Shown piece after piece: positions 3,987 to 63,648 of a stretch of 64,000 nucleotides of DNA. The notes under the pieces were generated by a model. The model was not told the origin of the DNA. It searched no databases and saw nothing but the letters and a program-made list of their open reading frames with translations. The position numbers and the translations under genes are program-made. Source of the DNA: Nitrospirales bacterium (lineage in GTDB: Bacteria > Nitrospirota > Nitrospiria > Nitrospirales > UBA8639); contig OY820905.2 of NCBI GenBank assembly GCA_963555755.3, positions 4,448,001 through 4,512,000 of the forward strand, given 5' to 3'. How positions within the stretch are numbered: the first letter of the stretch is position 1; every line of letters starts with the position of its first letter.

Positions 3987-4247
3987 TGAGCGCACCTGGC
4001 AAGATAAAAAAATGTCTTATCACCACCGAGGTGACCACGACTTTTTGTATTTCCCCATGCACACCAATATCTTACACGGCTGTTTTGCGTCCAACTGCCG
4101 TTTCTAGGTTGAATCAGGTAAAACCGTCAGGAACCTGGGACCGGGGATTAGTCGCTTGTTGCTGGACGTTCGGCACTGGAAAAGGAAGGCAAAGATCCTT
4201 ATGCACGAGCAACTAGCGACCAGCACCTAGCAACTCTTCAAGGCAAG

Positions 4248-5597
4248 ATGAAAAAACAGATTCCGTTAGATCAGCTCAAGCCCGGCATGTATCTTCTCAG
4301 CATGGACCAAAGTTGGTGGAAAACCCCCTTCCTGGTTCACCATCGATTTATCAAAAATGACGGAGAAATTGAAAAGATCCGGAAGGCTGGCGTTCAGTTC
4401 GTGGTCATTGATGAGTCAAAAGGCTTGCGTGATGAACCACCCGAATCTCTCGAATCTTCCGATCAATGCGATGCAGGCCTTTCTTCTGGAGGGCAGATTG
4501 AACTCTCGAGACTCGAGAGTGATCCCCTTCGCAATAATGAGTACGTTCACGAGGAGGTTTCTTCCTCCAACAGTACCGATACCCTCCCTTCAGCCCTGTT
4601 GTCTGACCAAGAGCAGGGGGCGTCCAAGTCAGAAATTCTAAAGATTGCACCCCAAGATGCTGCCCGTCAGGTTCGTACTGCCGCTGTTCGTGCCGTCGAA
4701 CAGGTGTTTGAAGGCGTGCGGTCCGGAGAACCACTTAATCATCCCCTCCTCGAGAAAATGGCACGTGCCCTCGTTCAACAGGTCGTGGATGATCCTCGAG
4801 CCTTTCCTCAGTTGGTGTTGGTTGGGAACCTCGCCGCCGTGGATAAGCATCTCTACAGCCATGTGGTGGATGTGTGCGCGCTTGCCGTGGTGCTCGGGAT
4901 CGAAATGGGATGGGAAGAACAAGAGTTACAGGCATTGGCACTGGGTGGCTTGCTCCATGATGTCGGATATATTCGGTTGCCAAATAATCTAGTGCGGAAT
5001 AGAAAACATGCAGGAAAGGCCGACCGCGTGTTGTTGGACACACATTCCGAGGTGGGACACTCCATTGTCAAACTCTCCTCGGACCTTTCGCTGGATGTCA
5101 AACAGATCATTCTGGAACACCATGAACGATTAGATGGGTCCGGAGAGCCTCACGGGTTGACTGGCGAGAGGCTTTCACCCTTGGGTCAAGTCGTCGGTCT
5201 TGTCGATCAATTTGATAAACTGACCAGCAACTGGGGAATGGGGCCGTTGCGTTCGTCAGCGCTGGTCTTGAGGGATCTCTATCAGGAAGCCAAGGACGGT
5301 CGTTTCCCTCTGCGTCCCATTGAACGCTTGATCCAATGCCTGGGCGTGTATCCCATCGGGAGTTTGGTCGAGCTTTCTACCGGGGAGCAGGGTGTTGTCA
5401 TCAGGACGAATCCCTCGAGCTTGCTGAAACCCACAATCAAATTGATCGTGGGGGCTGACCATCTTCCGTATCCGGCACCATGGAATATTGACCTCGCCTG
5501 TCCGGTATCCGGTGAGCCCGATCGATCGATTCGATCAGTGCTAAATGCCAATCAGGAACAGATCCAAGTCAAAAAATATTTTACTGTGGGCGTGTAG
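4248..5597 (+). CDS. HD-GYP domain protein with DUF3391-like N-terminus
   Basis: LKPGMY..W.KTPF N-terminus; LLHDVG; HHERLDGSGEP; GVYPIGSLVELSTGE. Confidence 0.88.
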   Translation: MKKQIPLDQLKPGMYLLSMDQSWWKTPFLVHHRFIKNDGEIEKIRKAGVQFVVIDESKGLRDEPPESLESSDQCDAGLSSGGQIELSRLESDPLRNNEYVHEEVSSSNSTDTLPSALLSDQEQGASKSEILKIAPQDAARQVRTAAVRAVEQVFEGVRSGEPLNHPLLEKMARALVQQVVDDPRAFPQLVLVGNLAAVDKHLYSHVVDVCALAVVLGIEMGWEEQELQALALGGLLHDVGYIRLPNNLVRNRKHAGKADRVLLDTHSEVGHSIVKLSSDLSLDVKQIILEHHERLDGSGEPHGLTGERLSPLGQVVGLVDQFDKLTSNWGMGPLRSSALVLRDLYQEAKDGRFPLRPIERLIQCLGVYPIGSLVELSTGEQGVVIRTNPSSLLKPTIKLIVGADHLPYPAPWNIDLACPVSGEPDRSIRSVLNANQEQIQVKKYFTVGV

Positions 5598-5665
5598 GTG
5601 AAGCGTCATAACCTTTCGGCACGCATCACGCTTTACGCTCCACTGATTCGGAAGAAAGCTTTTTG

Positions 5666-8600
5666 ATGTCGCACAGGACTCCCTCACACTCACCGCAGGC
5701 TTCGATAGAGCAAGAATTGCGGTGGTTTCACGCGTCGAATCGGGCTGTGCTTAATTCCTTAGCGATAGCGGTGTGTACACTCGATCGCAGTGGTGCCGTG
5801 GAGTCGTTGAATCAGGAAGCTGTTCGGTTATTAGGATGGGGCGAATCCACCTGCCGTGGCCGATCCTTTCATGATCTCACCCAGTGTTCGTCCATGGTGG
5901 TGGGTAAGTCGTCTCAGGATGTCTGCCCCATTGCTGACGTGTTACAGACAGGCGAATCTCTGTGGGTCCCTCGAGTAGGTTTGATGAGCCGGAGTAGAGA
6001 CTGGCTCATGGTCGAACTGACCTGTACTCCCCTTGTTGATGAAGGGGCATCTGGTGTCGTGCTGAGTTTCCGGGATTTAGCGACTCAGATTCAGATGGAA
6101 GATGACCTGCATCGTCTCGCCTCGATTCCAGATGAAAGCCCGTTTCCCATCGTGGAGTTCAACATTCAAGCCAATATGTTGTATGCCAATCCTTCCATGA
6201 CTCGACTTATGGAACAAGCGGGATTTCGTGAAGAAGGATTCTCTGCGGCATTGCCCACTGATGTGCAAACCATCGTGGAACGATGTTTGACCCTCGGGGT
6301 GTCCGAACACGATGTCGAGGTCGATGTGGGAAGGAAGCAATATGCCTGGTTGTTTTGTCCGTTAAAAGATTTACAGCTTGTTCGAGGGTACGGCATTGAT
6401 ATCACAGAGCGGAAGCAAGCTGCCGATGAACTTGGAGCGTTTGTGGAGGTGTTAGGCCAAAAGAACCATGAGTTGGACGAGGCTCTCACCAAGGCCGAGG
6501 CAGCTACCCAAGCCAAAGCCGCCTTCCTCGCTATGATGAGCCATGAAATTCGCACCCCGTTAAATGGGATCATTGGTATGACGTCCCTGCTGACAGACAG
6601 TTCCTTGACCCCCGAACAACGCGAAGATGCCGATACGATTCAGAAATCCGCTGAAGGGCTCTTGAGGATTATTAATGATATTTTGGATTTCTCGAAGATC
6701 GAAGCCGGGAGATTGGATTTCGAAGTCATTGACTTCGATCCGCATACCTTGCTTGAGGATGTCTTGGACTTGTTGGCGCTGCGGGCCCACGACAAAGGGC
6801 TGCATTTGGCCGGGCGGGTCCTTTCGGATGTGCCGTCCTGTCTTCGAGGTGACCCCATGCGGTTGCGGCAAATTTTCACCAACCTCATTGGGAATGCGAT
6901 CAAGTTTACTGATCACGGGGAGGTTGTCGTTGAAATCCATGCAAGGGGTTGTGACACGATCAGCGAATCGGAAGGTGGTCCCGAAGGGGAGGACCTGGTG
7001 GTACTGCATTGTACCGTTTGTGATACAGGAATCGGGATTTCTCCTGAAGGGCAACGGCGGTTATTTCAGCCATTTTCTCAAGCCGATTCCACGACCACAC
7101 GCAAGTATGGGGGAACGGGGTTGGGGTTAGCGATTTCCAAACAATTAGTCGAGTTAATGGGGGGAACCATTGGGGTGTGGTCCATGCCAGATCAGGGGAG
7201 CGAATTCTGGACCATCCTCCCGTTTGCGTCCCAATCACACCGTCCCATTTCAGAACCGTTACCCGAATTTCGCCTACTCCAAGGCCGTTCGGTCTTGCTG
7301 CTTGAATCCCATGAACCAACGAAAGTGGGAATTGAGGAATTGTTGAAGGCCATCAATGTCTCCTGTCAGAGCAAGGACTCCCTTGCTGGCGCCCTTCAAG
7401 CTCTGCGCGAAAGGCCTATCCATTCCCAGATGTATGATATGGCCCTCATTGATTGTGAGGGATGTGGGGATGATCCGAAACGCCTCATTCAGGAGTTGAG
7501 GCAGGCGATGGGAGAATCAATTGTGCCCCTGGTCCCCCTTCTTCGTGGGAATCGTAAGGGGAGTGAGCTGGCCGTTGAGGCTGGTGGAGCCTTATGGCTG
7601 ACCAAACCCGTGCGTCGATCGCGACTGTATAAATGTTTGCATGCGCTCATACATCAGCCGGAGGCTTCTGTCAGTCGAGAGTCGTTACCGGCGGATGTAG
7701 ATACGGTTTTGGCACAAGGTCGACCCTCGTCCCACGCCTTTCAAGGCCGGATTTTGGTGGCTGAGGATAATCCCATTAACCTCAAGGTGGTCGTGGGCAT
7801 GTTGAACAAAACGGGAGTGGTGGTTGATACCGTCACGAACGGGAGGGAAGCCTGCGAAGCGGTGGCGAAGCAATCCTACGACCTGGTGTTCATGGACTGG
7901 CAAATGCCGCAGATGGATGGCCTCCAAGCCACGGTAGAAATACGGAGACGAGAGGCGGCAGGCCGTGAAGCGTTAAGCGTGAAGCGTCATGAGAACGACG
8001 ATGATTCTTCTCACGCATTACGGATCACGCCTCACGAGACTTCTCCGTCTCACGTCCCCATTGTAGCCATGACGGCCAATTCTATGCCTGGTGATCGGGA
8101 GAAATGTCTGGCGGCAGGCATGGATGAGTATTTGGTCAAGCCGCTTCGCCTGTCGGCGGTGGTCGAGGTGTTAGCGAACTGGTTAACTCCTCAAGGGGCT
8201 GGATCGCATGTGGAACCGGATCACGAAACAGAACCGGGGTTCAGAAAAGCGGTGGATGGGGACGATAAGAGAAGAACAGAGGGGTGTGGAGAAACTTCAA
8301 CTCATTCCCATACGTTATGGGATCCAACTATCGCGCTTTCTCATATGGATGAGGATCACGTCCTGCTACAGGAGTTAATAGCACTGTTTATGGAGACCGG
8401 CCCCGCGACGCTCTCAAAGATTCGGGAGGCCCTCGATAATCAAGATTACGTGATGGCTGAACGATCCGCGCATACGCTCAAAGGTTCACTCGGGGCGTTT
8501 CGTGCGAAATCGGTGCAGGCCTGTGCAGGGGAATTGGAACGACTCGCGTCTGAGCATCGGTCCGACAGCGTTGAGTCTGTGTATCAGCAGTTGTCTGAAA

Positions 8601-8677
8601 GCACGGTACAGCTCCTTCAGGAATTTCATGAATATGTGAATAATAGTAAGGAGTCAGAAGTAAGGAGTGAGAAGTGA
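5666..8677 (+). CDS. Hybrid sensor histidine kinase (PAS-HisKA-HATPase-REC-REC-Hpt)
   Basis: MSHEIRTPLNG, NLIGNAIKF, DTGIGI, GGTGLGL, FMDWQMP, AHTLKGS. Confidence 0.95.
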   Translation: MSHRTPSHSPQASIEQELRWFHASNRAVLNSLAIAVCTLDRSGAVESLNQEAVRLLGWGESTCRGRSFHDLTQCSSMVVGKSSQDVCPIADVLQTGESLWVPRVGLMSRSRDWLMVELTCTPLVDEGASGVVLSFRDLATQIQMEDDLHRLASIPDESPFPIVEFNIQANMLYANPSMTRLMEQAGFREEGFSAALPTDVQTIVERCLTLGVSEHDVEVDVGRKQYAWLFCPLKDLQLVRGYGIDITERKQAADELGAFVEVLGQKNHELDEALTKAEAATQAKAAFLAMMSHEIRTPLNGIIGMTSLLTDSSLTPEQREDADTIQKSAEGLLRIINDILDFSKIEAGRLDFEVIDFDPHTLLEDVLDLLALRAHDKGLHLAGRVLSDVPSCLRGDPMRLRQIFTNLIGNAIKFTDHGEVVVEIHARGCDTISESEGGPEGEDLVVLHCTVCDTGIGISPEGQRRLFQPFSQADSTTTRKYGGTGLGLAISKQLVELMGGTIGVWSMPDQGSEFWTILPFASQSHRPISEPLPEFRLLQGRSVLLLESHEPTKVGIEELLKAINVSCQSKDSLAGALQALRERPIHSQMYDMALIDCEGCGDDPKRLIQELRQAMGESIVPLVPLLRGNRKGSELAVEAGGALWLTKPVRRSRLYKCLHALIHQPEASVSRESLPADVDTVLAQGRPSSHAFQGRILVAEDNPINLKVVVGMLNKTGVVVDTVTNGREACEAVAKQSYDLVFMDWQMPQMDGLQATVEIRRREAAGREALSVKRHENDDDSSHALRITPHETSPSHVPIVAMTANSMPGDREKCLAAGMDEYLVKPLRLSAVVEVLANWLTPQGAGSHVEPDHETEPGFRKAVDGDDKRRTEGCGETSTHSHTLWDPTIALSHMDEDHVLLQELIALFMETGPATLSKIREALDNQDYVMAERSAHTLKGSLGAFRAKSVQACAGELERLASEHRSDSVESVYQQLSESTVQLLQEFHEYVNNSKESEVRSEK

Positions 8678-8701
8678 TGTCCTGTGGAGAAATACATGGG
8701 A

Positions 8702-9016
8702 CAAATTCGAAACTCGAAATCCGAAACACATTCAAATGTTCAAATTTCAAATGACTCAAACGCTAAGAGCTGGGCCACGTGACCTTTTGCGTTAGTATGA
8801 TCCGTTTGAAACATTGCGTCGCAGCGTAAGTGATTCAAGAACAACACAGGTTCATGGGTTCCCGGTTCATGGTTGGAGAAAGATGAAGGTCAAACCTAGA
8901 ACGGTGAACCTTATAACCTGACTCCAGAGCGTTTGTGAGACAAGGGAAGTCATTTGAAACATTGGGGCTTTGGATTTCGGATGTGTTTCGGATTTCGAGA
9001 TTCGGATTTCAAATTT
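8702..9016. repeat. Heptamer-arm element H2 with internal insert I
   Basis: CGAAACTCGAAATCCGAAAC.. / ..TTTCGGATTTCGAGATTCGGATTTC arms; insert 8817-8952 between two TTTGAAACATTG. Confidence 0.85.
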
Positions 9017-9026
9017 AGGGAACCTT

Positions 9027-9995
9027 ATGTCTAAACCGTCTGACACGTCTGAAATGGTATTAGTGGTTGATGATGATCCTGTCACCTTGGAATGTTTAAT
9101 GGAGACAGTGCGATTGTTCGGTTTAGGAGTATGTGCGGCTTCGGATGGAGTGCAGGCTCTGCGGATGTTTGAAGAACACCAGCCGAGTATCGTGTTGACA
9201 GATGTTCGGATGCCGAACATGGATGGATTGGCGTTGACACATCAGGTGAAGGCGCGGCGTCCTGATTGCCCTGTGATCATCGTGACCGGATATGGAGACG
9301 AATCCACAACCGTGGCGGCCTTGAAAGCCGGGGCCTCCGATTTCTTGCATAAACCGTTTCAACTTTCGGAGTTAAAAAATACCTTACAGCGGACCCTCTC
9401 GCTTGTTCGAGCGCGGTCCATGGAAACCCAGGCCCTCCAGTCATTGACGAAGCTGACGTGGTCGTTCGAAATCGAGAATGACCTTGAATCGTTAGGTGGG
9501 ATTCTGACGGTCATGCTCAGACCGATTGATGTCTGGTTGTCCGAGGCTGGTCAATTGCATGTGCGAATGGGACTGCAGGAGTTACTCATCAATGCTGTCG
9601 AGCATGGGAATTTGGGTATTTCCGCTGAGGAAAAAGGTGAGGCACTGATGAATGATACGTATGACGCCTTGCTAGACGAACGGCGTCACCTGCCCATCAA
9701 TGCCACACGTCGTGTGAAGGTGTGGATGGAACATGATGCGGCCACTCACACGTTTCATTGCCGAATTTGCGATGAGGGGGAGGGGTTTGATTGGGCGCCG
9801 CTCCTTCAGAGTAATGCCGAAGCGATTCCCTCCCTCGCGGGATCCGGGCGAGGAATTTTTTTAGTCAAAACCCTCATCCCGCACATCCAATATTTTGGCC
9901 GAGGGAACGAAGTCGCGCTGACCGTTCAGTATGGTGGAGTGGTAACACGAGAGGAGTCAGGAGTCAAAAGTCAGGCGTCAGGTATGGGGAGCTAA
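9027..9995 (+). CDS. Response regulator fused to an RsbW-like anti-sigma/Ser kinase HATPase domain
   Basis: REC (VVDDD, TDVRMP, KPF) plus LQELLINAVEHGN, ICDEGEGFD, GSGRGIFL. Confidence 0.88.
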   Translation: MSKPSDTSEMVLVVDDDPVTLECLMETVRLFGLGVCAASDGVQALRMFEEHQPSIVLTDVRMPNMDGLALTHQVKARRPDCPVIIVTGYGDESTTVAALKAGASDFLHKPFQLSELKNTLQRTLSLVRARSMETQALQSLTKLTWSFEIENDLESLGGILTVMLRPIDVWLSEAGQLHVRMGLQELLINAVEHGNLGISAEEKGEALMNDTYDALLDERRHLPINATRRVKVWMEHDAATHTFHCRICDEGEGFDWAPLLQSNAEAIPSLAGSGRGIFLVKTLIPHIQYFGRGNEVALTVQYGGVVTREESGVKSQASGMGS

Positions 9996-10045
9996 CAATA
10001 AAGAGATTTCTCACCTTTCACTCTTCACTCCTGACTATTTCCTTA

Positions 10046-10367
10046 AACTCGAAATCCGAAACACATCCGAAACCCAACACTCGAATGTTTCAAACAGGGT
10101 CCTTTGATCGAAAGGGCTCAGTCCCTATTCGTCCCTTGTCATTTCGACCCTTGGGAGAAATCTCGGTTTCGCATTCACCCAACATTACGTTGGCAAGTGA
10201 CATTCGAGTTTTGAGGGCACCTCTAAAAACCGTCCTTTTCCGTGATGGCGGCGTCAGCCGCGTGCTCAAATCCTCATGTATTCGCCCATACATTCCGGTT
10301 TTCCGCGCGCGGCTTCCTTGCCCTCACATAAAATGCCTGGTTTTTAGAGGTACCCTTGAATTTGTTC
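10046..10367. repeat. Heptamer-arm element H3 interrupted by MITE G
   Basis: AAACTCGAAATCCGAAACAC..GAATGTTTCAAAC..CATTCGAGTTTTGA[G]TTGAATTTGTT. Confidence 0.7.
10215..10355. mobile_element. MITE family G, copy 2
   Basis: Reverse complement of 1300-1440; TTGA/TTGA duplication. Confidence 0.9.
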
Positions 10368-10884: not shown

Positions 10885-12834
10885 GTGGCGGTGATGGCAC
10901 CTGTTTTGGCAACGACCTTTCTCCATGATGGGGATCCCTTAGTTCGGCGTTCAGCGGTAGAAGCATTACATCCTGACGCCTGTGCCGATGAGGGTGAGCG
11001 CTCCGCGGCTATTGAATCGCTAGTCTGTGTTTTGAGTGATCCGCATGTGGCTGTCCAAGAAGCCGCCATGGCTGCCTTGGTGATGTTTGATTCTGGCCTT
11101 GTTGCCACGCACCTCCTTCCTGTTTTGCACAGTACCGTACAACATCGGAATGTGGCCATTGAAGTTCTTCAACGATTAAGCCCCACGGCTCTCCCGGTTC
11201 TCTTTCGTGCGGTGCCCGATTCTGACAAGCATATCCGTAAGTTTATTGTCGATATTGTTGGGCATATTGGAAGTCCCTCTGCGGTCGATGGCCTGTTGGA
11301 GTTCGTGCACGATTCGTGTCCGAATGTCCGTGCGACCGTCTGCGGATCACTAGGGGTGTTGGGTGATCAACGTGCGGTGGGTCCGTTAATTCGTATGGTT
11401 CAAGACCCGGAAGAATGGGTCATGTTTAGTGCGATCAACGCCTTGGGGATTCTGAAGAATGGTGAGGCGGTGCCCATGCTGCGGGGGCTGTTGTCTGTTG
11501 AGGACAGTGCGATTCGTTGTGCGGTTGTCGAGGCGTTAGGCGCCATTGGTGATCCTCAGGTGTTACCAGACTTGTTGCCTATGCTGCCAACCGCTCGGAT
11601 TCCACTTCGGAATGTGCTGTTTGTCACGATCATGGAACTGGTCGGAGATCAGGCTGAAGTCTTTCAGCGAGAAGAAATGCGGGATTATCTGTTTGCTGGA
11701 TTGGTCCAAGCGTTGAAGACCAGAGAACCGGAAGTGCAATTAGCGGCTCTCCATGGGCTGCGTTTGATCGGGAATACGAGAGCCACTGGCGCCTTGTTAT
11801 CTTTTCTGGAGGGTCAACGGGCCGGAGAAGAGGAACTTGAAGCTGCGGTGCTCCATGCCCTGACCCAGATTGGGGATGAAGACGAGTTGCTTCAGGCAGC
11901 GAGGAACGGATCTGAACGCGTGGCATTACTGTGTATTGACGCGCTTTCAACTCGTCGAGTGATCCATGCTGTTCCTGTCTTAAGCCAATTGGTGGTTCAC
12001 TCAGAGAATAGAGAAATTCGTCGAGCGGCATTAGTGGCGTTAGGTCGCATAGGGATCGAGGAAAGCGGGGAGTCGGCAGTCTTAGTGGCCCTTCAAGATC
12101 GCAGTGGGTGTGTCAGGAAGGAAGCCGCGAGAATTGTGGCTGAAAAAAAGATTCAGGATGCTGGCCATGCATTATGGAGTCGATTAGATCATGAACCGTA
12201 TCCCGACGTCCTTGTTGAGCAAGTCCGAGCCATCATCAATCTCGAATGTCAAGATCGAGTGACCATCCTTCGAGGGTTACTCGATCTTGATCGCCCAGAA
12301 GTCAGAGAAGCCGCGATTGCTCATTGGCCTGATATTCACGATCCAAGGGTTCGACAGCTGTTGGATGACCATGTGGATGATTCCGATTGGCACGTGCGCT
12401 TGTGCATCGTAGAACGATTGGTCGTGGAGCAGGACGAAACTCTGTTGGATATGTTTATTACGGCTTCCGCGGATCCACATCCCTATGTCAGGCAAGCCGC
12501 AGTTCAGGCAGTGGGTCAATTTTCAGGAGAGGCGGTGTGTGTCACCTTACGCACCGCGGTGATCAGTGACCCAGATATGTGGGTGCGTACTCGTGCCGTC
12601 GAGCAACTGGTGAAACTTCATGATGTGGATGCCTGTCAGATGTTGACACACATCCTTAAGGATTCGCCTGTTCCTCTCCAAATTGCCATCGTCAGAGCCC
12701 TAGGGACCATAGGCAACAGTACTGTGGTAGAGATACTTCAGGAGATGCAATCCCACGAAGAATCAGAAATCGAAGAAGCCGAATCTAGGAGCCTGTCCAA
12801 GATTAGGGATCGTCGCGAGGGGGTGATGGTTTGA
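10885..12834 (+). CDS. HEAT/PBS-lyase repeat protein; C-terminus replaced by MITE D
   Basis: Many D....VR..A..ALG repeats; start uncertain; last ~15 codons come from the MITE. Confidence 0.85.
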   Translation: MAVMAPVLATTFLHDGDPLVRRSAVEALHPDACADEGERSAAIESLVCVLSDPHVAVQEAAMAALVMFDSGLVATHLLPVLHSTVQHRNVAIEVLQRLSPTALPVLFRAVPDSDKHIRKFIVDIVGHIGSPSAVDGLLEFVHDSCPNVRATVCGSLGVLGDQRAVGPLIRMVQDPEEWVMFSAINALGILKNGEAVPMLRGLLSVEDSAIRCAVVEALGAIGDPQVLPDLLPMLPTARIPLRNVLFVTIMELVGDQAEVFQREEMRDYLFAGLVQALKTREPEVQLAALHGLRLIGNTRATGALLSFLEGQRAGEEELEAAVLHALTQIGDEDELLQAARNGSERVALLCIDALSTRRVIHAVPVLSQLVVHSENREIRRAALVALGRIGIEESGESAVLVALQDRSGCVRKEAARIVAEKKIQDAGHALWSRLDHEPYPDVLVEQVRAIINLECQDRVTILRGLLDLDRPEVREAAIAHWPDIHDPRVRQLLDDHVDDSDWHVRLCIVERLVVEQDETLLDMFITASADPHPYVRQAAVQAVGQFSGEAVCVTLRTAVISDPDMWVRTRAVEQLVKLHDVDACQMLTHILKDSPVPLQIAIVRALGTIGNSTVVEILQEMQSHEESEIEEAESRSLSKIRDRREGVMV

Positions 12835-12948
12835 GTCAGATGTTTCGATCGTTTGAGGCGAATAGTGATGACTATGTAACGAAAAGGATCGAAAGATCTG
12901 GCCAAATCCAGCGCACCCGCAGTAGATCCGCTAATCTTGGACAGGCTC
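12789..12948. mobile_element. MITE family D (160 bp)
   Basis: TIR GAGCCTGTCCAAGATTAG / CTAATCTTGGACAGGCTC; flanks CTAG/CTCG. Confidence 0.9.
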
Positions 12949-13000
12949 CTCGTGCTCTACGCCAATTGACGACTCCTATTTCCCCACCTGAGGTGTCGGT

Positions 13001-14043
13001 ATGACGGTCGCCATGACCCAAGATACCTTTCATCGTCTTCGGGCCATGATCTATACCAAAAGTGGATTGGAGTTTCCAGAATCCAAAAAGTATTTACTCG
13101 AGAGTCGTCTGAAACAACGGCTAGCCGACACTCACTGCCGAACCTATGAAGAGTACTTCAATTACTTGCGATTTGATCCCAATCGGGACAAAGAACTGAT
13201 CGAGTTGTTTAACTGTGTGACGACCAATGAAACCTATTTTTTTCGAGACCATACTCAGATCGATTGCTTTCGGCAGTTGATCCTTCCTCACGCGATCAAA
13301 GAACGGGAAAAAATCGCAAACTTCGAATGTGGTGTGCAGGCTGTTCTTCGGGTGAGGAACCTTTCACGCTGGCCATGGTGGTGGCAGAAGAATTTCCGTC
13401 ATTGGCTGGATGGAATATTGAAATTCTTGGGACGGATATCAGTGAGCACATTTTGGCATTGGCGCGGCGAGGGGTGTATGGATCCTATTCGGTTCGGAAT
13501 GGGCCGCCTACCTATTTGCGGAAATATTTCGCGGCAAGTGAAGGCCAATATACCGTGGGGCCGACCTTACGGAAAATGGTGAAGTTTTCGAGTGTCAATT
13601 TATTTGACTCAGTGCAGATGCGTGCGTTTCGAGACATCGACGTGATCTTTTGCCGTAATGTGTTGATCTACTTTGACCAAGAGGCCAAACGAAAAATTGT
13701 GACGAGTTTTTATGATGCTCTGCTGGATTCCGGCGTATTGGTGATTGGGTTTTCCGAGTCACTGAGCGGGGTGAATCGTTTGTTTCTACCCCTTCCCTGG
13801 AATAAAACCGTCATGTACGGCAAGGCCAGCTCCACGGTTGCTGCTCCCTATACTACCCTGGCGAGTGCTGGCCTTGCTTCTCCATCGTTCCAAAGTGTGG
13901 GACGTGGTGATACGCGATCCGGAGGCGTCTCTATTTATTCACCCATGTCTTCTCCCATACCGACAGATGTCCCTGTTCCAAACACCATTTCCGGGTCAGG
14001 TATTGGCGGTGGAGGGGGAAAGCTAAAGAGAGAACCCCGATGA
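13001..14043 (+). pseudogene. cheR: Chemotaxis methyltransferase CheR, frameshifted (or sequencing error)
   Basis: N-half TTNETYFFRD in one frame; WCAGCSSGEEP, GTDIS, IFCRNVLIYFD in another; one extra A in the A6 run at 13308-13313 restores the frame. Confidence 0.9.
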
Positions 14044-15919: not shown

Positions 15920-15981
15920 GAATAGTCAGGAGTGAGGAGTGTGGGAGAAAGGTGTGAAGAGTTGAGAGTGAGGAGTAAAGA

Positions 15982-17178
15982 GTGAGGAGTACGGATAAAC
16001 CGATTCGGGTCTTGGTGGTCGATGACTCGGCGTTCATGCGCAAGGCTATTGCCAACATGTTGGGTGAGTCTTCAGACTTCGTGGTCATTGATACGGCACG
16101 AAATGGGGATGAGGCGTTGGCGAAAGTCGCGACTCTGAAGCCGGATGTGATGACGTTAGATATCGATATGCCCGGGATGGATGGCTTAACCGTCCTTAAA
16201 CGAGTGATGGCCGCGCATCCGCTTCCGGTGGTGATAGTGAGTAGCCTGACCGAAGATGGTGCTCAGGTTACGATTCGAGCATTAGAACTCGGTGCGGTAG
16301 ATTTTGTCTCCAAGCATTTAGGCGGATCGGCACTCAAAATTTCCGACATTCGTGTTCTGCTACATCAGAAGGTGAGAGCCGCGGCCAAGGCCATTGGAAA
16401 AGTGGGACGACCTTCGAGTGAGGTGCAACACGTGTCCAAGCCTCTCACTTCGATCCATACGCATACACCACAGGCCTCGTTTTCGGCTTCACCCACGAAT
16501 TCCTTGGCGTCGCCGGTTCAGACATTTTCACGGCGTGCGTATTATGAAGCGAGCGGCTTGTCCCCACTGCTGGCCCTTGGGTGTTCGACCGGTGGTCCAC
16601 AGGCCCTGCAACAGGTGCTGACCCAATTGCCATCTGATTTTCCTGGGGCCGTCATTGTGGTGCAGCATATGCCAAAAATTTTTACCAAATCGTTTGCCGA
16701 ACGGCTGAACCAATTGTGCACGCTTGAAGTTCGTGAGGCTGAAGAGGGTGACGAGGTCGTGCCAGGAACTATTTTGCTTGGACCAGGAGGACAGCATCTC
16801 ACGTTGGAATGGCGTGGCACCAAAGTGATGACTCATGTCAGTGATCAACCTGTTCATCTGCCCTATCGTCCATCAGTCGATCTGATGATGCAATCCGCCG
16901 CAAAGATTTTTGAACAAAAAGTTCTCGGCGTGGTCATGACGGGGATGGGGCAAGATGGCTTGGAAGGGGTTCGAGCCATTAAGGCTCACGGTGGGACCGT
17001 GTTGGCTCAAGATGAAGCCAGCAGCATTGTGTATGGAATGCCCAAAGCGGTGGAGGAAAGTGGGTGTGCTGACAAAGTGGTCTCTTTATCCCGAATGGCG
17101 CATGAAATTCAATCGGTAATGGCGCTGAAAGACAGTATGTCTTCGCGTGAGGCTCTGTTGGTTCGTGCTTCAATATAG
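15982..17178 (+). CDS. cheB: Chemotaxis methylesterase CheB
   Basis: REC domain plus GCSTGGP, VQHMP, TGMGQDG; catalytic triad intact. Confidence 0.95.
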   Translation: MRSTDKPIRVLVVDDSAFMRKAIANMLGESSDFVVIDTARNGDEALAKVATLKPDVMTLDIDMPGMDGLTVLKRVMAAHPLPVVIVSSLTEDGAQVTIRALELGAVDFVSKHLGGSALKISDIRVLLHQKVRAAAKAIGKVGRPSSEVQHVSKPLTSIHTHTPQASFSASPTNSLASPVQTFSRRAYYEASGLSPLLALGCSTGGPQALQQVLTQLPSDFPGAVIVVQHMPKIFTKSFAERLNQLCTLEVREAEEGDEVVPGTILLGPGGQHLTLEWRGTKVMTHVSDQPVHLPYRPSVDLMMQSAAKIFEQKVLGVVMTGMGQDGLEGVRAIKAHGGTVLAQDEASSIVYGMPKAVEESGCADKVVSLSRMAHEIQSVMALKDSMSSREALLVRASI

Positions 17179-17305
17179 ACGGGAAACGGAAGGCGGGAGG
17201 CGGGAGATGGAAGGCGGAAGAAGATGGAAGACGACTTTTTCTTCTCCCTAACGTTTCCCGCCTCACGTCTTACGCCTTCCGATATGTGCAGAGGAGGAAA
17301 TATCC

Positions 17306-20594: not shown

Positions 20595-20735
20595 GTGAAG
20601 GCCGTGATGCGTGACACGTGATGCGTGAAGCGTAGAGAAAAAGAAGGTCTGGCTTCGACGCATCACGCTTCACGAAATTCCTGTAGAACATGAATATGAG
20701 AACAAAAGATACACCATCGTTAGGAGGATAAGATC

Positions 20736-21593: not shown

Positions 21594-21901
21594 CAAATCC
21601 GAATACCGAAAATCCGAAACCCGAATCTCGAAATCCGAAACACATTCAAATGTTCAAATTTCACATGACTCAAACGCCGGAGGACAAACAGTACGAGCTT
21701 GAAGGTCGAGTATGCCAATTCGCTCGCTCTGCCCAAATGATCTGTTTGAAACATTGCGTCGCAGCGTAAGTGATTCAAGAACAACACAGGTTCATGGGTT
21801 CCCGGTTCATGGTTGGAGAAAGATGAAGGTCAAACCTAGAACCTAGAACGGTGAACCTTATAACCTGTGGATTTGTTTCGGATTTCGAGATTAGGATTTC
21901 G
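21594..21901. repeat. Heptamer-arm element H4 with four-helix-bundle-like relic and insert I
   Basis: Inverted near-copy of 25135-25433. Confidence 0.88.
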
Positions 21902-21949
21902 TATTACACCACTAACATTATCATGAAAAACAAGAAGGAGGTGGAAAGC

Positions 21950-23403: not shown

Positions 23404-23529
23404 AGATCGGTCGCTCGTGGTGAGTTGTTTGTTGTTCGTTGTTCGTCGCGAGTACTTGGGATCGTACAGTCCTCTTTCTTACTAGCGACGAGCAACCAGC
23501 GACTATTTTCCTCATGAGGTACTGCTAAG

Positions 23530-24660: not shown

Positions 24661-24779
24661 TACGTCGCTTGTCGCTGGTTGCTCGAAAAAATTGGGGTTG
24701 AAGGGTCCCCGTACCAGCAACTGGCGACGAGCCACTGGGGACGAGCAACCAGCAACTGTTATCTTCGAGGAGGGGGCTT

Positions 24780-25134: not shown

Positions 25135-25433
25135 GGAAATTCGAAATCAGAATATCGACATTCGAAACACATCCACAGGTTATAAGGTTCACCGTTCTAG
25201 GTTCTAGGTTTGACCTTCATCTTTCTCCAACCATGAACCGGGAACCCATGAACCTGTGTTGTTCTTGAATCACTTACGCTGCGACGCAATGTTTCAAACA
25301 GATCATTTGGGCAGAGCGAGCGAATTGGCATACTCGACCTTCAAGCTCATACTGTTTGTCTTCCGGTGTTTGAGTCATGTGAAATTTGAACATTTGAATT
25401 TGTTTCGGATTTCGACATTCGGATTTCGGATTT
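25135..25433. repeat. Heptamer-arm element H5
   Basis: Reverse complement of H4, including insert I at 25176-25286. Confidence 0.88.
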
Positions 25434-25569: not shown

Positions 25570-25887
25570 ATGGCTATATCAGGATCTGATCCTGTCAATG
25601 ATTTGAATCAAGCATTGTTTGGGGTGCGTCGCCCACAAGGAGGGGACAAACGTACAGGGGATGCCTCAACAACTCCATCCGTCGGAAGGATTGGGGATAC
25701 CGTTGCCTTCTCTCCTGGAATTATGGAACGAGAAGCGGTGGTCAATCAAATCCGAGCATTACCGGATATCCGTGTTGAGCAATTGGCCTCGGTTCAACAG
25801 GCTCTTGCTTCAGGGCAACTCCATGTGGATGGGGACCGTCTCGCCGCCGGTGTCATTCGGGAAATAGTGTTAAACGCCGTGGTTTAG
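25570..25887 (+). CDS. flgM: Anti-sigma-28 factor FlgM
   Basis: DTVAFS..PDIRVEQL..ALASGQLHVD..LA; lies between flgJ and flgN. Confidence 0.88.
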   Translation: MAISGSDPVNDLNQALFGVRRPQGGDKRTGDASTTPSVGRIGDTVAFSPGIMEREAVVNQIRALPDIRVEQLASVQQALASGQLHVDGDRLAAGVIREIVLNAVV

Positions 25888-26398
25888 GACCTGAGAGAAA
25901 ATAACTTGGACACTATCGCGCCAAGATTTGGGTCGGATTTGGACGGAACGATTGAGAAACACCCGAGGCCTAGCACAGCGATGGTGAGGGTGTTTCGATT
26001 GAGGCCCGTTCAACCTAGAAACGGCAGTTGGGCGCAAAAAAGACGTGTAAGAAATTGGTGTGCATGGTGCAATACAAAAAGTCGTGGTCACCTCGGTGGT
26101 GATGAGACCTTTTTGTATTGTGCGAGGAGCCTGTCCGAGATTAGCGATCGTGACGAGGGGGGGCTGGTTTGAGTCAGATGTTTCGATCGTTTGAGGCGAA
26201 TAGTGGTGACTATTTAACGAAAAGGATCGAAAGATCTGGCCAAATCCAGCGCACCCGCAGTAGATCGGTCTAATCTTGGACAGGCTCCTTGGTGCGCCAA
26301 GAGCTTGCGCGGACTTTTGTGATCCAACTGCTGCTTCTAGGTTCAATGATGGCCCGAAGATTGGATGCGAGATATCCAAGTTATTTTCTCTCAGGTCC
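25887..26398. mobile_element. MITE A copy 4 containing C (26014-26341) containing D (26127-26287)
   Basis: A ends with TTA/TTA; C with TTCAA/TTCAA; D TIRs GAGCCTGTCC/GGACAGGCTC. Confidence 0.9.
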
Positions 26399-26576
26399 TT
26401 AATGGGGTATTGAAATATTCAAAGATGGGTGGTCCATTATGTGTAGGCCTTCAGTCGTCGCTCGTATCTCGTGAAAGAACGACATACGAGATACGCTTCA
26501 CGAATCACGTCTCACGCTTCACGTTCACAAAGAACGGAGCGAATTGTGTGGTCCCATTTTTGGAGGACATCTGCCA

Positions 26577-28748: not shown

Positions 28749-28917
28749 GGCGTCAGAACGCGTGATGCGTGAAGCGTAATGCGTGATGCGAAAGACGAGA
28801 GACAAGGGCCTTGAAGACTCATGGGTGATTCGTAAAGGGTGAAGGGGGAAGAATGTTGAGTATGAATCTTCACGCTTCACGCATCACGGATCACGCTTCA
28901 CGAAAAGGCATCTGATT

Positions 28918-31484: not shown

Positions 31485-31490
31485 ATCTTA

Positions 31491-31647
31491 GGGTTCGCGA
31501 AAGAATAACTTCCCATGTTTGGGCGTCGATCCATCCCGTCTGCCGGCGTTGCTCGTCCTTTCCATACGAGGAGTATGCGCAGTCCTCGCGCCTTGCCAGA
31601 CAGGCGCCTCAACACCCAAACATGGGAAGTTATTCTTTCGCGAACCC
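31491..31647. mobile_element. MITE family E, copy 2
   Basis: TIR GGGTTCGCGAAAGAATAACTTCCCATGTTTGGG; flanks TTA/TTG. Confidence 0.92.
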
Positions 31648-31668
31648 TTGCATGAGATCATACTGATT

Positions 31669-34014: not shown

Positions 34015-34038
34015 GGGAAGGAATCTAACTTCTTGAAA

Positions 34039-34160
34039 GGGAACGTTGAAAAAAGCCGCCAGCGGCGTTCTCGCCATTTTGCCGTGCTCACGTACTCCAT
34101 GTACGCTCCGCGCGTCAAAATGGGTGCGGCCTTGCTGGACGGACTTTTTTGAACATTCCC
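34039..34160. mobile_element. MITE-like family F, copy 1 (122 bp)
   Basis: GGGAACGTTGAAAAAAG / CTTTTTTGAACATTCCC; inverted copy at 61568-61689. Confidence 0.88.
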
Positions 34161-34178
34161 TGAAAGGTGAGTGACTCT

Positions 34179-34722: not shown

Positions 34723-34977
34723 ATGTTAATTTTGACTCGCAAGGAAGGCGAAGGAATCCGTCTCGGGGACGATATTCGAATAGTGCTTGTCCAGTTGAGA
34801 GGCAATCAGGTGAGACTCGGGATCGAGTGCCCGAAAAACATGCGTGTGCTACGGGATGAATTGTATCAAGCGGTTTGCAAGGAAAACCTCGCGGCGATGG
34901 CTGCTGATCCGACGCATGTGCCAGATCTGACCATACATATCCTTCCGCAAACTTCCAATGATTCTCCGAATCCCTAG
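34723..34977 (+). CDS. csrA: Carbon storage regulator CsrA
   Basis: MLILTRKEGEGIRLGDDI..VRLGIECP..RDE. Confidence 0.95.
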   Translation: MLILTRKEGEGIRLGDDIRIVLVQLRGNQVRLGIECPKNMRVLRDELYQAVCKENLAAMAADPTHVPDLTIHILPQTSNDSPNP

Positions 34978-35192
34978 TCTCGTTGCTCGTCTCTCGTCGC
35001 TCGAAAAAAATGAACCTACAGTCACCAGCGACTAGTGACTAATTTGCCTCCCGGTCAAATTTTCCTATCCCGTTTGAGTGGGACATCCTGTTCCTGGGTC
35101 GCGGGTGAGTGCCACTGCCCGTCAATTCACCGTTTGATGCTCGAATGACGTCAAGTCTGACAACGAATCTCACAAAACCAACAGAAAAAGTG

Positions 35193-48478: not shown

Positions 48479-48730
48479 TTACCTTGTGGTCAGAGATTCC
48501 TCAACCGCCTTTCGAATATATTTCTGGTAAGAGACGCCTTGTTCGCTGGCCTTTTTTCGGACTTCAAAAAGCAGTTCAGGGGGAAAGCGTAGATTGACCT
48601 TTTCTGTTTTCGGAAGAAATTCGAATGTCACCCGTTGGGCTTTTCTGGGGTCAATATAGTCAGTCAGATCCTGTTCCAGAAACTGTTCAACTTCTTTATC
48701 GGATTTAAATTTCGGCGATTTTTTCTTCAT
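48479..48730 (-). CDS. brnA: BrnA/CopG-type antitoxin
   Basis: PKFKSDKE..DLTDY..VNLRFP..A...GVSYQKYIR. Confidence 0.85.
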   Translation of the reverse strand: MKKKSPKFKSDKEVEQFLEQDLTDYIDPRKAQRVTFEFLPKTEKVNLRFPPELLFEVRKKASEQGVSYQKYIRKAVEESLTTR

Positions 48731-49013
48731 ATTCCTTAGCCTCCTTCTTGTGCATGTGCCTGGCACTGATGGGCCTGATCAGTGTTTCAGCATCCTGGAT
48801 ACGAAAGGTAAAAGCTACAAGCATGGGCCTCCCTTTGGGAGACGGGCCATAGGCGATATATCTTTCTTCCGATTGGGAGTGATGGATATCCGGTATGACA
48901 AACAGGCCACTCTGCTGGAAAAATTCTTCGATTCCCTTAGGGCGAAGGCCGTGTTTACAGCACTTGTGCTTGTTGGCAGAATCCCAATCAAATCCTAGAG
49001 CCTGTATTTTCAT
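48705..49013 (-). CDS. brnT: BrnT-family ribonuclease toxin
   Basis: FDWD..N..KHG..EERY..G..FT.R..IRPISAR. Confidence 0.92.
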   Translation of the reverse strand: MKIQALGFDWDSANKHKCCKHGLRPKGIEEFFQQSGLFVIPDIHHSQSEERYIAYGPSPKGRPMLVAFTFRIQDAETLIRPISARHMHKKEAKEYEEKIAEI

Positions 49014-60157: not shown

Positions 60158-60162
60158 GCTTT

Positions 60163-60597
60163 TTGGTTGTGAATTCCCAACTTCAGATTTATCGTCAGCA
60201 GCAAGTCCAGCATGAAATTGAACAGGCGTCGCCCGTTCGGCTTGTCGTCATGCTGTATGACAAAGCCATGTCGCTTCTTCGGCAAGCCGTGCTCCATATC
60301 GATCGGAATAATGTCAAAGCCAAAGGTGAAGCCCTCAATCGGGTCGTGGAGATCATAGGGGAATTGCAGGCTGTCCTGAATGGGGAAGAGGGGGGAGTGG
60401 TCGCACAAAACTTGGATGCCATGTATGAATTCATGATTCGATCGGTCACCTTGGCCAATTTGAATAACGACCCCCAACCCCTTGATGGTGTCTTGATGGT
60501 GTTGGAAGAATTGCGAAAAGGCTGGCAAGAACTTGAACAGATGACTCAAGACGGCGAGGTTGCCGCTGTGACCAGTCCACTCAACAGCGTGGGGTAG
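60163..60597 (+). CDS. fliS: Flagellin chaperone FliS
   Basis: Y..QASPVRLVVMLYD..NLDAMYEF..ELRKGW. Confidence 0.95.
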   Translation: MVVNSQLQIYRQQQVQHEIEQASPVRLVVMLYDKAMSLLRQAVLHIDRNNVKAKGEALNRVVEIIGELQAVLNGEEGGVVAQNLDAMYEFMIRSVTLANLNNDPQPLDGVLMVLEELRKGWQELEQMTQDGEVAAVTSPLNSVG

Positions 60598-60742
60598 AAA
60601 CTTGGTAACTACGCAGGTGGATAGACTGAAGGCTGAAGGCTTTTAGGGGGAAATCATGCGTGATCATACAACACGTCGGGCATTTCTGAGTGATAGCCTT
60701 CAGCCTTCAGCCTACATGCCTGAGTAGTCACGAAACTTGCTT

Positions 60743-61270
60743 ATGTCGAACATCCCTACATTCATTGAACAGCATCAAGCCTATCTTCATCTTCAACAAC
60801 AGATCTCGAAGGCGATCCATAACCGTGACGAGAGCCTATTGGTCCAATTGAAACAGGTGAGCCATGAATTATTCGCTCAACTTGATGCGGCCAGGAAAGA
60901 ACTCGTAACGGCCACTGGCTCTGCATGGCCCAATCAGTTTTTTCCTCAATCAGATCTTGCCCAATTGGTTCAGCTCATGGAACAGGCTCAGCGACATGTC
61001 CAAGAAAACGAAACGGCCCTTCAAACCTGGTTAGGCCAAATGAAGGTCGATATCCAACACTATCAGACGTCTCAATCACAACGTGGAGTGTTGGCAGCCT
61101 ATATCCAGCAAAGGCAAGCTGGATCCCACCGAACCACTGCATTTGAACACGATACGCTCTCTCCTGAGTCGTTGGATGTCGCCCCATCCCCAACGATCCC
61201 GTCGAGTCCTTGGGTGGTCCCTCCCAAAGATCCGGAAATGGTGGGACACCAAGTCAACGAACAATCCTAA
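60743..61270 (+). CDS. Helical hypothetical protein, possibly FliT-like
   Basis: Gln-rich helices directly after fliS; function inferred from position only. Confidence 0.6.
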   Translation: MSNIPTFIEQHQAYLHLQQQISKAIHNRDESLLVQLKQVSHELFAQLDAARKELVTATGSAWPNQFFPQSDLAQLVQLMEQAQRHVQENETALQTWLGQMKVDIQHYQTSQSQRGVLAAYIQQRQAGSHRTTAFEHDTLSPESLDVAPSPTIPSSPWVVPPKDPEMVGHQVNEQS

Positions 61271-61449
61271 GGGCCTGTGAAACAATAACTTAGACATCTC
61301 GCATTCCATATTCGGGCCATCTTTGAACGCGCCTCAATCGAAAAAACCTCAACATAGGCCTGCTATGTCTCGGCTTTTTCTCAATCGTTACGTCCAAATC
61401 TGACCCAAATCTGGACGCGATCTTGTCCAAGTTATTGTTTCACCGGCCC
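61271..61449. mobile_element. MITE family A variant (179 bp)
   Basis: TIR GGGCCTGTGAAACAATAACTT / AAGTTATTGTTTCACCGGCCC; body homologous to A; TAA/TAA on a stop codon. Confidence 0.88.
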
Positions 61450-61567
61450 TAATATTCCTTCTGGTGTCCAGACTAAATGTGTTTCTGTCTTTCCTGGTTG
61501 GGTCTGTCGAATATTTCATGACAAAAACCCACAAATGCGCCAGGACATACGACCAACATCAGTGAGA

Positions 61568-61689
61568 GGGAATGTTCAAAAAAGTCCGTCCAGCAAGGCC
61601 GCAGCCCTTTTGACGCGCGGAGCGTACTCTCAGTACGTGAGCACGGCAAAATGGCGAGAACGCCGCTGGCGGCTTTTTTCAACATTCCC
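61568..61689. mobile_element. MITE-like family F, copy 2
   Basis: Reverse complement of 34039-34160 with few changes. Confidence 0.88.
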
Positions 61690-61911
61690 CGGTTGTCAAT
61701 TCTTTGACCTGGATGTGTCAAAAAGTCAGGGATTTTGCTCCATACCGTTCATAAGTTTCGGTGTGGGGCGAGTTCTGTCACTGATAAGGGTGGAACAAAA
61801 ATTGCTTTGTATATCTTAGAGTTACACAGGCGGGTTGGGGGCATATGGTGTTGAGGCCTCAAGTGGCTCAAAAATTGCTAGATATCTAGTGGAGCGAGAG
61901 AGACGCTCTAG

Positions 61912-62202: not shown

Positions 62203-62247
62203 CTAGCTGCGTGAGCCGGTGAGAATGCGTTGGTTTATTGATTCTCT

Positions 62248-62580: not shown

Positions 62581-62915
62581 GTGTTGATGATGGTGTCATG
62601 GTCGTCATGTATCGGTGGGTGGTGCTTGTGCAAAGGTCACGAATGAAATGAGTGTCTTACTTTTTATGTTTTGGCGGCGAAGGTGGAAAAACCGGTGCTT
62701 ATGGGAATGGCGTCCCTGGGAAAAATTGTAACCCTGGGCCCGGCCCTGACCCAAAAAGGGCCGAATTTGTAATGGGTGACGCGTCATGCGTGATGAGTAA
62801 GGAGGCAAGAAGGTGAAAGTTAACACGACTCCTCCGCTTCACATATCACACTTCACGTCTTTCAAAGAACGCCGCGGACGCCCTTTTTCAACATTCCCCA
62901 GAAAGGACGGGAAGG

Positions 62916-63533
62916 ATGAGTGACCACCCGCTGAATGAATCCCAGAATGATGAGCGACGACAGGATTTTCGCGCCGATGTGTCCATGTGCATCTCGGTCG
63001 ATATGCCGTTGGCCCTTTCTTACGAGCCGGTCACCCCAGGCAATGGGTACTCGATGCCATGGCAATGGGATGACTTAGCGGTGTCACCTGATTTGGTGAA
63101 GGCCATGGTCAAACAAGTGGATTTGGTGACTCAGGAGCCCATGTTACTGCAAATGCTCACACGGATTGATTGGATGCTAACGACCGTCATGAAAATCTTG
63201 GGAAAAGACCATCATGTGCAACAAGCCTTTCCTGAATTTTTAACCGCCAATGTGAGCGGGTCGGGTATTCGATTCGTGGGTCGGCAAGAATTTCAGGTCA
63301 ACAACCATTTGGTGCTTCGAATGATACTTCGGCCTTTTGTCCCCATCCAGGCCTTGGCCAAAGTTCTTCGAGTTCGGACGGTGACGGTTGACGGCGAATC
63401 CCGATGGGAAGCCGCCTGTGAATTTTCAGAGATCGGACCTGATGATCGGGAAGCCATCATCCGGCATGTCTTGCGCGCTCAAGCGGTCCTGCAACGTCAA
63501 CGTCAGGCTAGTGAAGAAGCCGTAACGCTCTAG
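62916..63533 (+). CDS. PilZ-domain c-di-GMP receptor
   Basis: ERRQDFR (RxxxR) and NVSGSG (N/DxSxxG). Confidence 0.88.
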   Translation: MSDHPLNESQNDERRQDFRADVSMCISVDMPLALSYEPVTPGNGYSMPWQWDDLAVSPDLVKAMVKQVDLVTQEPMLLQMLTRIDWMLTTVMKILGKDHHVQQAFPEFLTANVSGSGIRFVGRQEFQVNNHLVLRMILRPFVPIQALAKVLRVRTVTVDGESRWEAACEFSEIGPDDREAIIRHVLRAQAVLQRQRQASEEAVTL

Positions 63534-63648
63534 TTCGTCGCTGGTTGCTAGTACCTTCGGATCTTTAGCACCTCTTTTTTTTCTAGCAACCAGCGACGAG
63601 AAACGAGCGACTGATAATCTTCCGAGTGGTTGTGGAAAGTCCTGATGC

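Follow-up and report, generated by a model that had tools for sequence, protein, structure and literature searches.

The stretch analysed here (the window) comprises 64,000 nt, G000:C1:4448001-4512000, of the 4.62-Mb genome of a Nitrospirales bacterium, which is the genome under study and is referred to as G000. A Pfam scan of the 56 open reading frames (ORFs) of the window identified a chemotaxis, flagellar and flagellin-glycosylation cluster; gene names that go beyond the Pfam labels, such as cheY and flgF, are those that we presume to apply. An earlier note had described degenerate runs of 7-nt units at many gene junctions, and these were present in all 16 of the stretches that it listed. 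Here we analyze these runs, most of which form the arms of hairpins, and their relation to genes of a four-helix-bundle (4HB, PF05635) family, of whose cassettes the hairpins are probably remnants. The features of the window are given below, with the strand where one was assigned and with the z-score of the fold (z) for single stretches.

1105-1130, plus strand: left arm of the CGGGAGG type, immediately behind the cheY stop (1101-1103), largely unpaired.
1231-1302, plus strand: 72-nt relic of a 4HB gene core (SxIRQAAVSLPSTIIEGAARQTKG), found with a local hidden Markov model (HMM) between other repeated elements.
4148-4236: TCGCTCG/CGAGCAA hairpin (z -2.27) lying upstream of the HD-GYP gene; G006 has the same type.
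5597-5642: short CGTGAAG/CTTCACG hairpin at the HD-GYP stop (z -1.34).
7964-8036: CGTGAAG hairpin in frame inside a histidine-kinase receiver domain; also in G005.
8645-8677, plus strand: solo GAGTAAG left arm over the kinase stop; no fold (z -0.13).
8701-9010: composite copy 1, an H element (CGAAATC) in which a TTCATGG element is nested; a 4HB start relic lies at 8876-8894.
9950-10037: GAGTCAG/CTCACTC hairpin overlapping the end of a response-regulator ORF.
15924-15992, plus strand: solo GAGTGAG arm that extends into the called cheB start, a GTG at 15982; no fold (z +0.71).
17179-17281: CGGGAGG/CCTTCCG hairpin at the cheB-cheW junction (z -6.64).
20595-20675: CGTGAAG hairpin at the flgF-flgG junction (z -4.19).
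21599-21905, plus strand: H composite copy 2 at the flgG-flgA junction; it contains a 4HB start relic of the sequence YELEGR (YDLEDR-type, 21683-21724) and a second start relic, MK (21816-21834); same outer arms but another interior in G006.
23410-23505: TCGCTCG hairpin at the flgH-flgI junction (z -3.78).
24663-24757: TCGCTCG hairpin at the flgI-flgJ junction (z -3.28).
25136-25433, minus strand: H composite copy 3, inverted, its interior near-identical to that of copy 2; same left outer arm but another interior in G005.
26455-26527: TCTCGTA/TACGAGA hairpin with a spare CTTCACG run, upstream of flgN.
28760-28902: CGTGAAG hairpin at the flgK-flgL junction (z -4.47).
34975-35040: TCGCTCG hairpin upstream of pseB (z -0.55).
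60605-60731, plus strand: miniature element with IS66 ends (14-bp ends, 8-bp duplication), CTGAAGG arms and a gutted 4HB gene of the MRDHT clade.
62775-62860: CGTGAAG hairpin (z -0.67) lying upstream of the PilZ gene; G003 lacks it.
63532-63612: TCGCTCG hairpin (z -4.68) located at the PilZ stop; G003 lacks it.

Tandem Repeats Finder called arrays of period 7 or 14 in 10 of the 16 listed stretches and none at 1105, 4148, 5597, 62775 and 63532. Over the whole window the lag-7 identity was 0.251, which is unremarkable taken alone. The comparison of intergenic with coding DNA that the earlier note had proposed was carried out genome-wide by counting, per kb, segments with at least 11 of 14 matches at a given lag. 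At lag 7 it yielded 0.439 per kb in non-coding and 0.042 per kb in coding DNA, as the note had expected. Non-coding values were also high at lag 14 (0.394) and lag 21 (0.265) and ranged from 0.03 to 0.11 at lags that are not multiples of 7. Overall, the genome-wide enrichment of lag-7 repeats in non-coding DNA is roughly 5-8-fold. G000 contains 353 lag-7 arrays, 265 of them non-coding, versus 52, 143, 55, 59 and 108 arrays at lags 5, 6, 8, 10 and 11, respectively; 20 lag-7 arrays were observed in the window and 4.9 were expected.

Arm pairs were counted genome-wide for nine unit families, as forward-then-reverse within 150 nt against the opposite order. The polarity of the arms was fixed, with counts of 74/0 for CGTGARG, 31/3 for CGAAATC, 11/0 for AAAAATG, 7/0 for CTGAAGG, 5/0 for TCGCTCG and 3/2 for TTCAGGG. 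After 3-mer-block shuffling of the genome no arm pairs remained in any of the nine families; the inverted pairing exceeds chance. That the runs are mostly paired with a run downstream agrees with this polarity, but it does not hold for 8645-8677 and 15924-15992, which are solo arms, or for 1105-1130. The stretch 26455-26527 had been assigned to the CGTGAAG type, to which only its spare run belongs, and the in-frame hairpin at 7964-8036 had not been listed. The sequence aligned to the latter is divergent or shorter in G003, G016, G013 and G010; at L244, a heptamer run was seen by eye in frame inside what we take to be a P-type ATPase gene. Fold z-scores of -2.2 or below were reached by only 8 of the 16 stretches of the window. 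G000 holds at least nine unit families, and arms most often consist of four units, so that the idea of five units per arm for a pentamer was rejected. A known structured RNA was rejected as well, since an Rfam scan of the window at gathering scores returned no match.

Each arm type brackets its own clade of 4HB genes. All four PF05635 genes of G000 are enclosed by heptamer arms, one of the CGTGAAG type, two of the AAAAATG type and one of the TTCAGGG type. The gene with CGTGAAG arms (L001, G000:C1:3789350-3790005) is broken by a repeat element of about 200 nt; G002 and G008 have an intact copy at this site. Among relatives, a 4HB gene was found in 17 of 31 close genomes and in 105 of 201 genomes of the phylum. 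Inspection by eye of 22 of their 4HB loci revealed arms with clade-specific units at most loci, and some loci scored low when these and further loci were scored automatically. For the MRDHT clade the best 80 of 532 relatives were taken, of which 72 loci had sufficient flanking sequence; its members are 72-100% identical and, according to the record titles, spread over several phyla. Both CTGAAGG arms were present at 48 and either arm at 67 of these 72 loci, compared to 1 of 179 control windows. A 4HB gene occurred in 32 of 35 genomes with GAGTCAG arrays versus 73 of 166 without, and inside family f11 in 23 of 25 versus 15 of 28; both are hand counts in which kin are not independent. Exact CGTRAWG triplets were found in 6 of the 31 relatives, including G000, G002 and G008, which share the cognate 4HB site, and are abundant only in G000, G002, G005 and G006. 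The protein family GxxExxY (PF13366) was considered as an alternative cassette cargo and rejected, as it has no match in G000.

The presumed mobility of one cassette type can be followed at 60605-60731. This element ends in 14-bp terminal inverted repeats of the same type as those of the resident 2413-bp insertion sequence (IS) IS66 and is flanked by a perfect 8-bp target duplication (60597-60604 and 60732-60739). Its interior consists of the CTGAAGG left arm, a ribosome-binding site, codons 1-10 of the gene (ATG at 60656), the last codons with the stop, and the right arm. It aligns with the filled elements L030 and L111, the latter a 453-bp version with a perfect duplication. In G003, the fliS and fliT genes overlap and carry no insert, i.e. 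the site is empty. The MRDHT start relic was found in 22 copies in G000, 17 of which have both IS66 ends; among these 17 the 8-bp duplication is perfect in six and has at most one mismatch in eight. One G000 copy with the relic carries a different deletion and keeps the 3' end of the gene. The element 60605-60731 thus has the ends of an autonomous IS and the 8-bp duplication that characterize MITEs (miniature inverted-repeat transposable elements) and mobile insertion cassettes (MICs). Two TTCAGGG copies likewise had ends resembling those of IS66. A second family of about 140 bp has IS66 ends and no CTGAAGG arms (G000:C1:143884-144024, 920040-920180, 2740398-2740538 and others).

Autonomous IS66 is present in 14 copies of 2413 bp, e.g. 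L065 (G000:C1:996882-999294), and has recently been active, because these copies are 99.7-100% identical. Perfect duplications flank 11 of the 12 copies checked, and the ORFs match DDE_Tnp_IS66 and, for the first ORF (295 aa), PF14236 (Druantia DruA). Mobile DNA is abundant in G000 in general, with 35 reverse-transcriptase and 17 Y1_Tnp matches next to the IS66 copies. The reverse-transcriptase load (PF00078) is unusually high and falls into several near-identical sets. Multi-copy intergenic repeat families of 120-400 nt, which are MITE-like, occur in the window at 3125-3288, 3537-4113, 10211-10357, 12785-12950, 25884-26399, 31487-31649, 34038-34161 and 61267-61689, and have dozens of matches in G002, G005 and G006.

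Filled, empty and bare states were found at orthologous junctions. Comparison with G000 covered 32 4HB loci, of which 13 gave no syntenic pair. At 1,821.8 kb of G000 an empty H hairpin stands where G005 and G006 have a decayed 4HB gene, and at 511 kb (C1:510979-511104) a gutted CTGAAGG element stands where L165 and L172 have a full MRDHT cassette; orthologous flanks were checked in both cases. Since L165 and L172 belong to distant Nitrospira, the latter site is either ancient or has been targeted repeatedly. Loci such as L212, L032, L038 and L151 are filled in relatives, and G000 has neither cassette nor arms there.

Arm types and their presence also differ at the junctions of the window. The flgF-flgG junction has CGTGAAG arms in G000 and G005 and TCTCGTA arms in G006. 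Arms of the TCGCTCG type lie between flgI and flgJ in G000, G005, G006 and G003, with a CGTGAAG-like array in G013 and no clear array in six others. The flgH-flgI hairpin is absent in G006, which has an array between cheW and motA, where G000 has none, and a TCGCTCG type between flgM and flgN. At the HD-GYP stop (5597), G006 carries a GAGTAAG plus CGAAATC element and G003 none. The cheB-cheW hairpin is one 7-nt unit shorter in G005 and is of another unit type in G006, while the flgK-flgL hairpin has two 7-nt deletions in G006 and is reduced to a remnant in G003. Close relatives often differ by the gain or loss of 7 or 14 nt.

Further remains of 4HB genes lie inside and beside the arrays of the window. 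The relic at 1231-1302 scored 16.1 bits (E 1.4e-6) when the three frames of 1104-1700 were searched with a local HMM built from 49 4HB proteins, and it is the only genome-wide match beyond the four genes; in DNA alignment it beat shuffles for one of five comparators (L199). In G013, G016 and G222 a 4HB gene lies behind heptamer arms after the orthologous cheY. In the window, this cheY is followed (732-2265) by repeat elements and a cheB fragment, and cheW, the gene for a methyl-accepting chemotaxis protein (MCP) and cheR, which come after it in G013, G016 and G012, are absent. The operon therefore appears to have decayed. An MK-type start relic occurs in all three H composites (8701, 21599 and 25136) and a YDLEDR-type start relic in those at 21599-21905 and 25136-25433. 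The shared interior of the composites has three copies in the genome, all in the window and within 17 kb. G005 lacks the nested part at the 8701 junction, and the same outer arms enclose other interiors in G006 at the flgG site and in G005 at the flgJ site. This pattern suggests that interiors were copied between arms of the same type.

Taken together, we consider it probable (about 0.62) that the hairpins of the window are remnants of 4HB cassettes that lack the gene, and likely also landing pads for such cassettes. A cassette would consist of a left arm, a ribosome-binding site, the 4HB gene and a right arm, the arms being the termini of the mobile unit; the window would hold remnants of at least six cassette families, several still with gene fragments. 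The CTGAAGG type, which lies between IS66 ends with an 8-bp duplication, would be moved in trans by the resident IS66 transposase. In the other types the gene may have been deleted between the arms, and the arms would gain or lose units through 7-nt slippage, in line with the 7- and 14-nt indels seen. Arms of the same type may further serve as homology handles by which interiors are copied between junctions, with empty hairpins as landing pads. Persistence in tight operon junctions could be due to the transcript folding the element out as a long imperfect stem. This stem might be cut by RNase III, as in Coxiella rRNA's intervening sequence (IVS), with any effect on mRNA stability a by-product. 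The earlier note had inferred a single mechanism behind the several unit types, which is supported, the common factor being the 4HB cassette, unseen by its author.

Several findings weigh against this explanation. Both IS66 ends were found in only 6 of the 72 filled MRDHT cassettes and the duplication in two, so that capture by IS66 is one route and not the rule. A search that started from the arms detected a 4HB gene within 200 nt in 0 of 44 loci, i.e. 0/11 for TCGCTCG (five of them G000's own), 0/30 for GAGTGAG (one locus per genome, from 39 positive genomes) and 0/3 for CGGGAGG, and no filled TCGCTCG cassette was found. With 353 arrays and four 4HB genes in G000, gene-less arms outnumber genes by about 90:1. 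The only 4HB gene of the CGTGAAG type in G000 is the interrupted one, and the cognate start motif was found at five places, one of which was examined. No target duplication was found for the 74 CGTGARG hairpins, where a flanking repeat of at least 7 nt occurred once (swap mean 1.2), and a spacer 12-mer is shared by only 13 of the 74. The MITE test covered the CGTGAAG hairpins, which were rejected as MITEs, as they have neither a target duplication nor a shared interior. The scheme also does not account for a first hairpin reaching a bare junction without a duplication.

It was proposed in the earlier note that the hairpins are intercistronic structures that tune operon stoichiometry, i.e. RNA structures selected by the host that set the stability or translation of flagellar and chemotaxis cistrons. 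Their position fits an intercistronic role. Stop codons are abutted by 59 of the 74 CGTGARG hairpins, compared to a mean of 28.7 and a maximum of 39 in 300 random placements and to 11-31% expected under point insertion, and only 3 of 74 lie in divergent gaps, versus 545 of 2685 gaps (20%) in the background. These gap tests relied on a crude longest-ORF set with over-extended starts, and what can safely be said is that CGTGARG hairpins occupy tight junctions and avoid divergent ones. Of the hairpins in 13 wide co-directional gaps, six were nearer the stop and seven nearer the start; strict targeting of stop codons was therefore not upheld. Further in favour of a host function, half of the listed stretches of the window fold, an RNase III gene is present in G000, and one arm runs into the called cheB start. 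This arm, at 15924-15992, provides an AGGAG motif and the called GTG, a similar arm is present in G006, and it was possibly co-opted as the translation start of cheB.

For 48 hairpins the sense strand is defined, and three negative tests on these led to the rejection of selection acting on the mRNA-strand duplex. G-U mismatches on the sense strand were not in excess of A-C mismatches (46 vs 39, p=0.52), pairing of arms was no better with the own partner (0.813) than after swapping (0.824), and in 23 of the 48 the fold of the sense strand was the more stable one. The CGTGARG unit is nevertheless kept as CGT-R-A-W-G without partner-specific pairing, and it appears that the constraint acts on the unit sequence and not on a tuned mRNA duplex. 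Intrinsic terminators were also rejected, as a U-tract (at least six T in the next 10 nt) follows only 2 of the 48 and many hairpins lie inside flagellar operons. Solo arms and an in-frame copy exist besides, and the junction comparison, which the earlier note had itself suggested as a check, revealed fast turnover, with the same junctions bare, decayed or of another unit type in close relatives. Tuning of operon stoichiometry is not supported, and a host-selected RNA structure is an unlikely explanation.

An equally improbable alternative is that a pentameric 4HB protein binds its cognate arrays, either, like its homologue Avd, with a reverse-transcriptase partner, here in trans, so that RNA of the cassette or hairpin would be copied into transcript junctions, or as the controller of a regulon. 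The fidelity between clade and unit, and a unit that is constrained without partner-specific pairing, would agree with such binding. The 4HB protein of G005 (P0001) belongs to TIGR02436 and matches the pentameric structure 2GSC (E 9e-26), and Avd, to whose model it has a weak match, is described to bind RNA together with a reverse transcriptase (bioRxiv 2023.10.23.563531). The 35 reverse-transcriptase matches of G000 and the CGTGARG sites without target duplication could be read in the same way. However, no reverse-transcriptase match lies within about 90 kb of the four 4HB genes, P0001 scores 33.2 bits with the Avd model NF033474, below its cut-off of 80, and the modal arm has four units and not five. 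Moreover, 74 CGTGARG hairpins are kept in G000 without an intact cognate gene, and Coxiella is reported not to produce the 4HB protein S23p in vivo (PMC4990558).

Elements of these ideas can be joined with the cassette reading. The hairpins would then be mRNA intervening sequences whose 4HB clades are Avd-like RNA-binding pentamers, each reading its own 7-nt code; the arms would allow RNase III to loop the cassette out of the transcripts of host operons, and empty hairpins would be homing sites, with arm-directed recombination or a borrowed reverse transcriptase refilling them. This combination is possible but doubtful. If true, it would constitute a widespread undescribed class and would explain bacterial heptamer repeats in general.

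That the arrays are mutational products of 7-nt slippage and template switching, which arise independently at gene ends and acquire 4HB genes secondarily, would suit the arm-first loci without a 4HB gene, the unique spacers without duplications and the indels between close relatives, but it is rather improbable, being strained by gene start and stop relics inside hairpins, by one unit tracking one protein clade across phyla, by the fixed polarity and by filled and empty versions at the same junction.

Two coding sequences of the window were noted besides these elements. The cheR gene lies on two overlapping ORFs, with CheR_N in 13001-13582 and the catalytic domain in 13264-14043, which suggests a frameshift. 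A gene for a BrnT-type toxin-antitoxin ribonuclease is located within the glycosylation cluster (48705-49013, minus strand).

Abundant intergenic hairpins in operons that far outnumber an associated gene are familiar from repetitive extragenic palindromic (REP) sequences, bacterial interspersed mosaic elements (BIMEs) and REPINs with their REP-associated tyrosine transposases (RAYTs). REP sequences have a conserved end tetranucleotide and a short GC palindrome. The units here are tandem heptamers. A REP/RAYT link was rejected: of the 17 Y1_Tnp matches, 15 lack a lag-7 array within 1.2 kb and the other two lie more than 1 kb from one. The short tandemly repeated repetitive (STRR) sequences of cyanobacteria are intergenic tandem heptamers. 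Degenerate tandem heptamers in intergenic DNA are thus shared with STRRs and with the TAACTGA repeats, which are known from Beggiatoaceae, Cyanobacteria and Bacteroidetes in 2-6 copies (MacGregor 2015, PMC4679880). The latter are direct repeats with a patchy distribution, 7-nt indels between strains, no known transfer mechanism and a proposed translational role (PMC4679880). The accessible portion of that report mentions no 4HB link; the arrays described here, by contrast, form inverted arm pairs with cassette relics. TAACTGA is not among the 50 commonest units of G000. Repeated intergenic hairpin sequences are also listed for Nostoc, again with no 4HB link mentioned in the portion of the source available (PMC2408588).

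The closest system is the 23S rRNA IVS of Coxiella burnetii, with which a PF05635 ORF, inverted repeats and heptamers are shared (Warrier et al., 2016, PMC4990558). The name of PF05635 derives from this rRNA setting. As described there, the S23p ORF lies within terminal inverted repeats and decays, the stem contains tandem heptamers (GACAGAT) whose number varies among strains, and RNase III excises the IVS in vitro with a cut at the first repeat; origin and function are called unclear (PMC4990558). A PF05635/TIGR02436 ORF between terminal inverted repeats is found filled in G000 and relatives and as relics in the window. The location differs, as all listed sites of the window lie between or in protein-coding genes, and so does the number, as there are hundreds of copies, most of them without a gene, in at least nine unit families. 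The Coxiella IVS was excised by RNase III in vitro, whereas processing here would be by analogy, from the presence of the gene. In the terms in which MITEs, MICs and 8-bp IS66 duplications are defined (PMC3281130), 60605-60731 is MITE/MIC-like, with resident IS66 ends, an 8-bp duplication, many copies and no transposase. This likeness is limited to the CTGAAGG type, where a 4HB gene, or a relic of one, forms the cargo. Avd, the accessory protein of diversity-generating retroelements (DGRs), is a pentameric four-helix bundle (PMC10053308; bioRxiv 10.1101/2023.10.23.563531) and shares this homologous fold; the 4HB proteins were rejected as DGR Avd by the P0001 score and by the distance of reverse transcriptases from the four genes. 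The feature is a variant of IVS-like and MIC-like elements, with a mechanism that is partly shown. No publication was found that joins heptamer arms to 4HB genes outside rRNA, although supplementary tables could hold one.

The finding touches on two open questions, the excess of bacterial heptamer repeats and what PF05635 does, and these long-unexplained repeats would be tied to one protein family. In the window several cassette families occur together; their junctions are filled, gutted or bare among close relatives, one mobiliser (IS66) is identified, and there are signs of an arm-guided exchange of interiors. As cassette states and the IS66 mobiliser co-exist, cognate binding, RNase III cleavage and refilling could be tested directly. 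The results also call for caution before such hairpins are taken for tuned regulators of operons.

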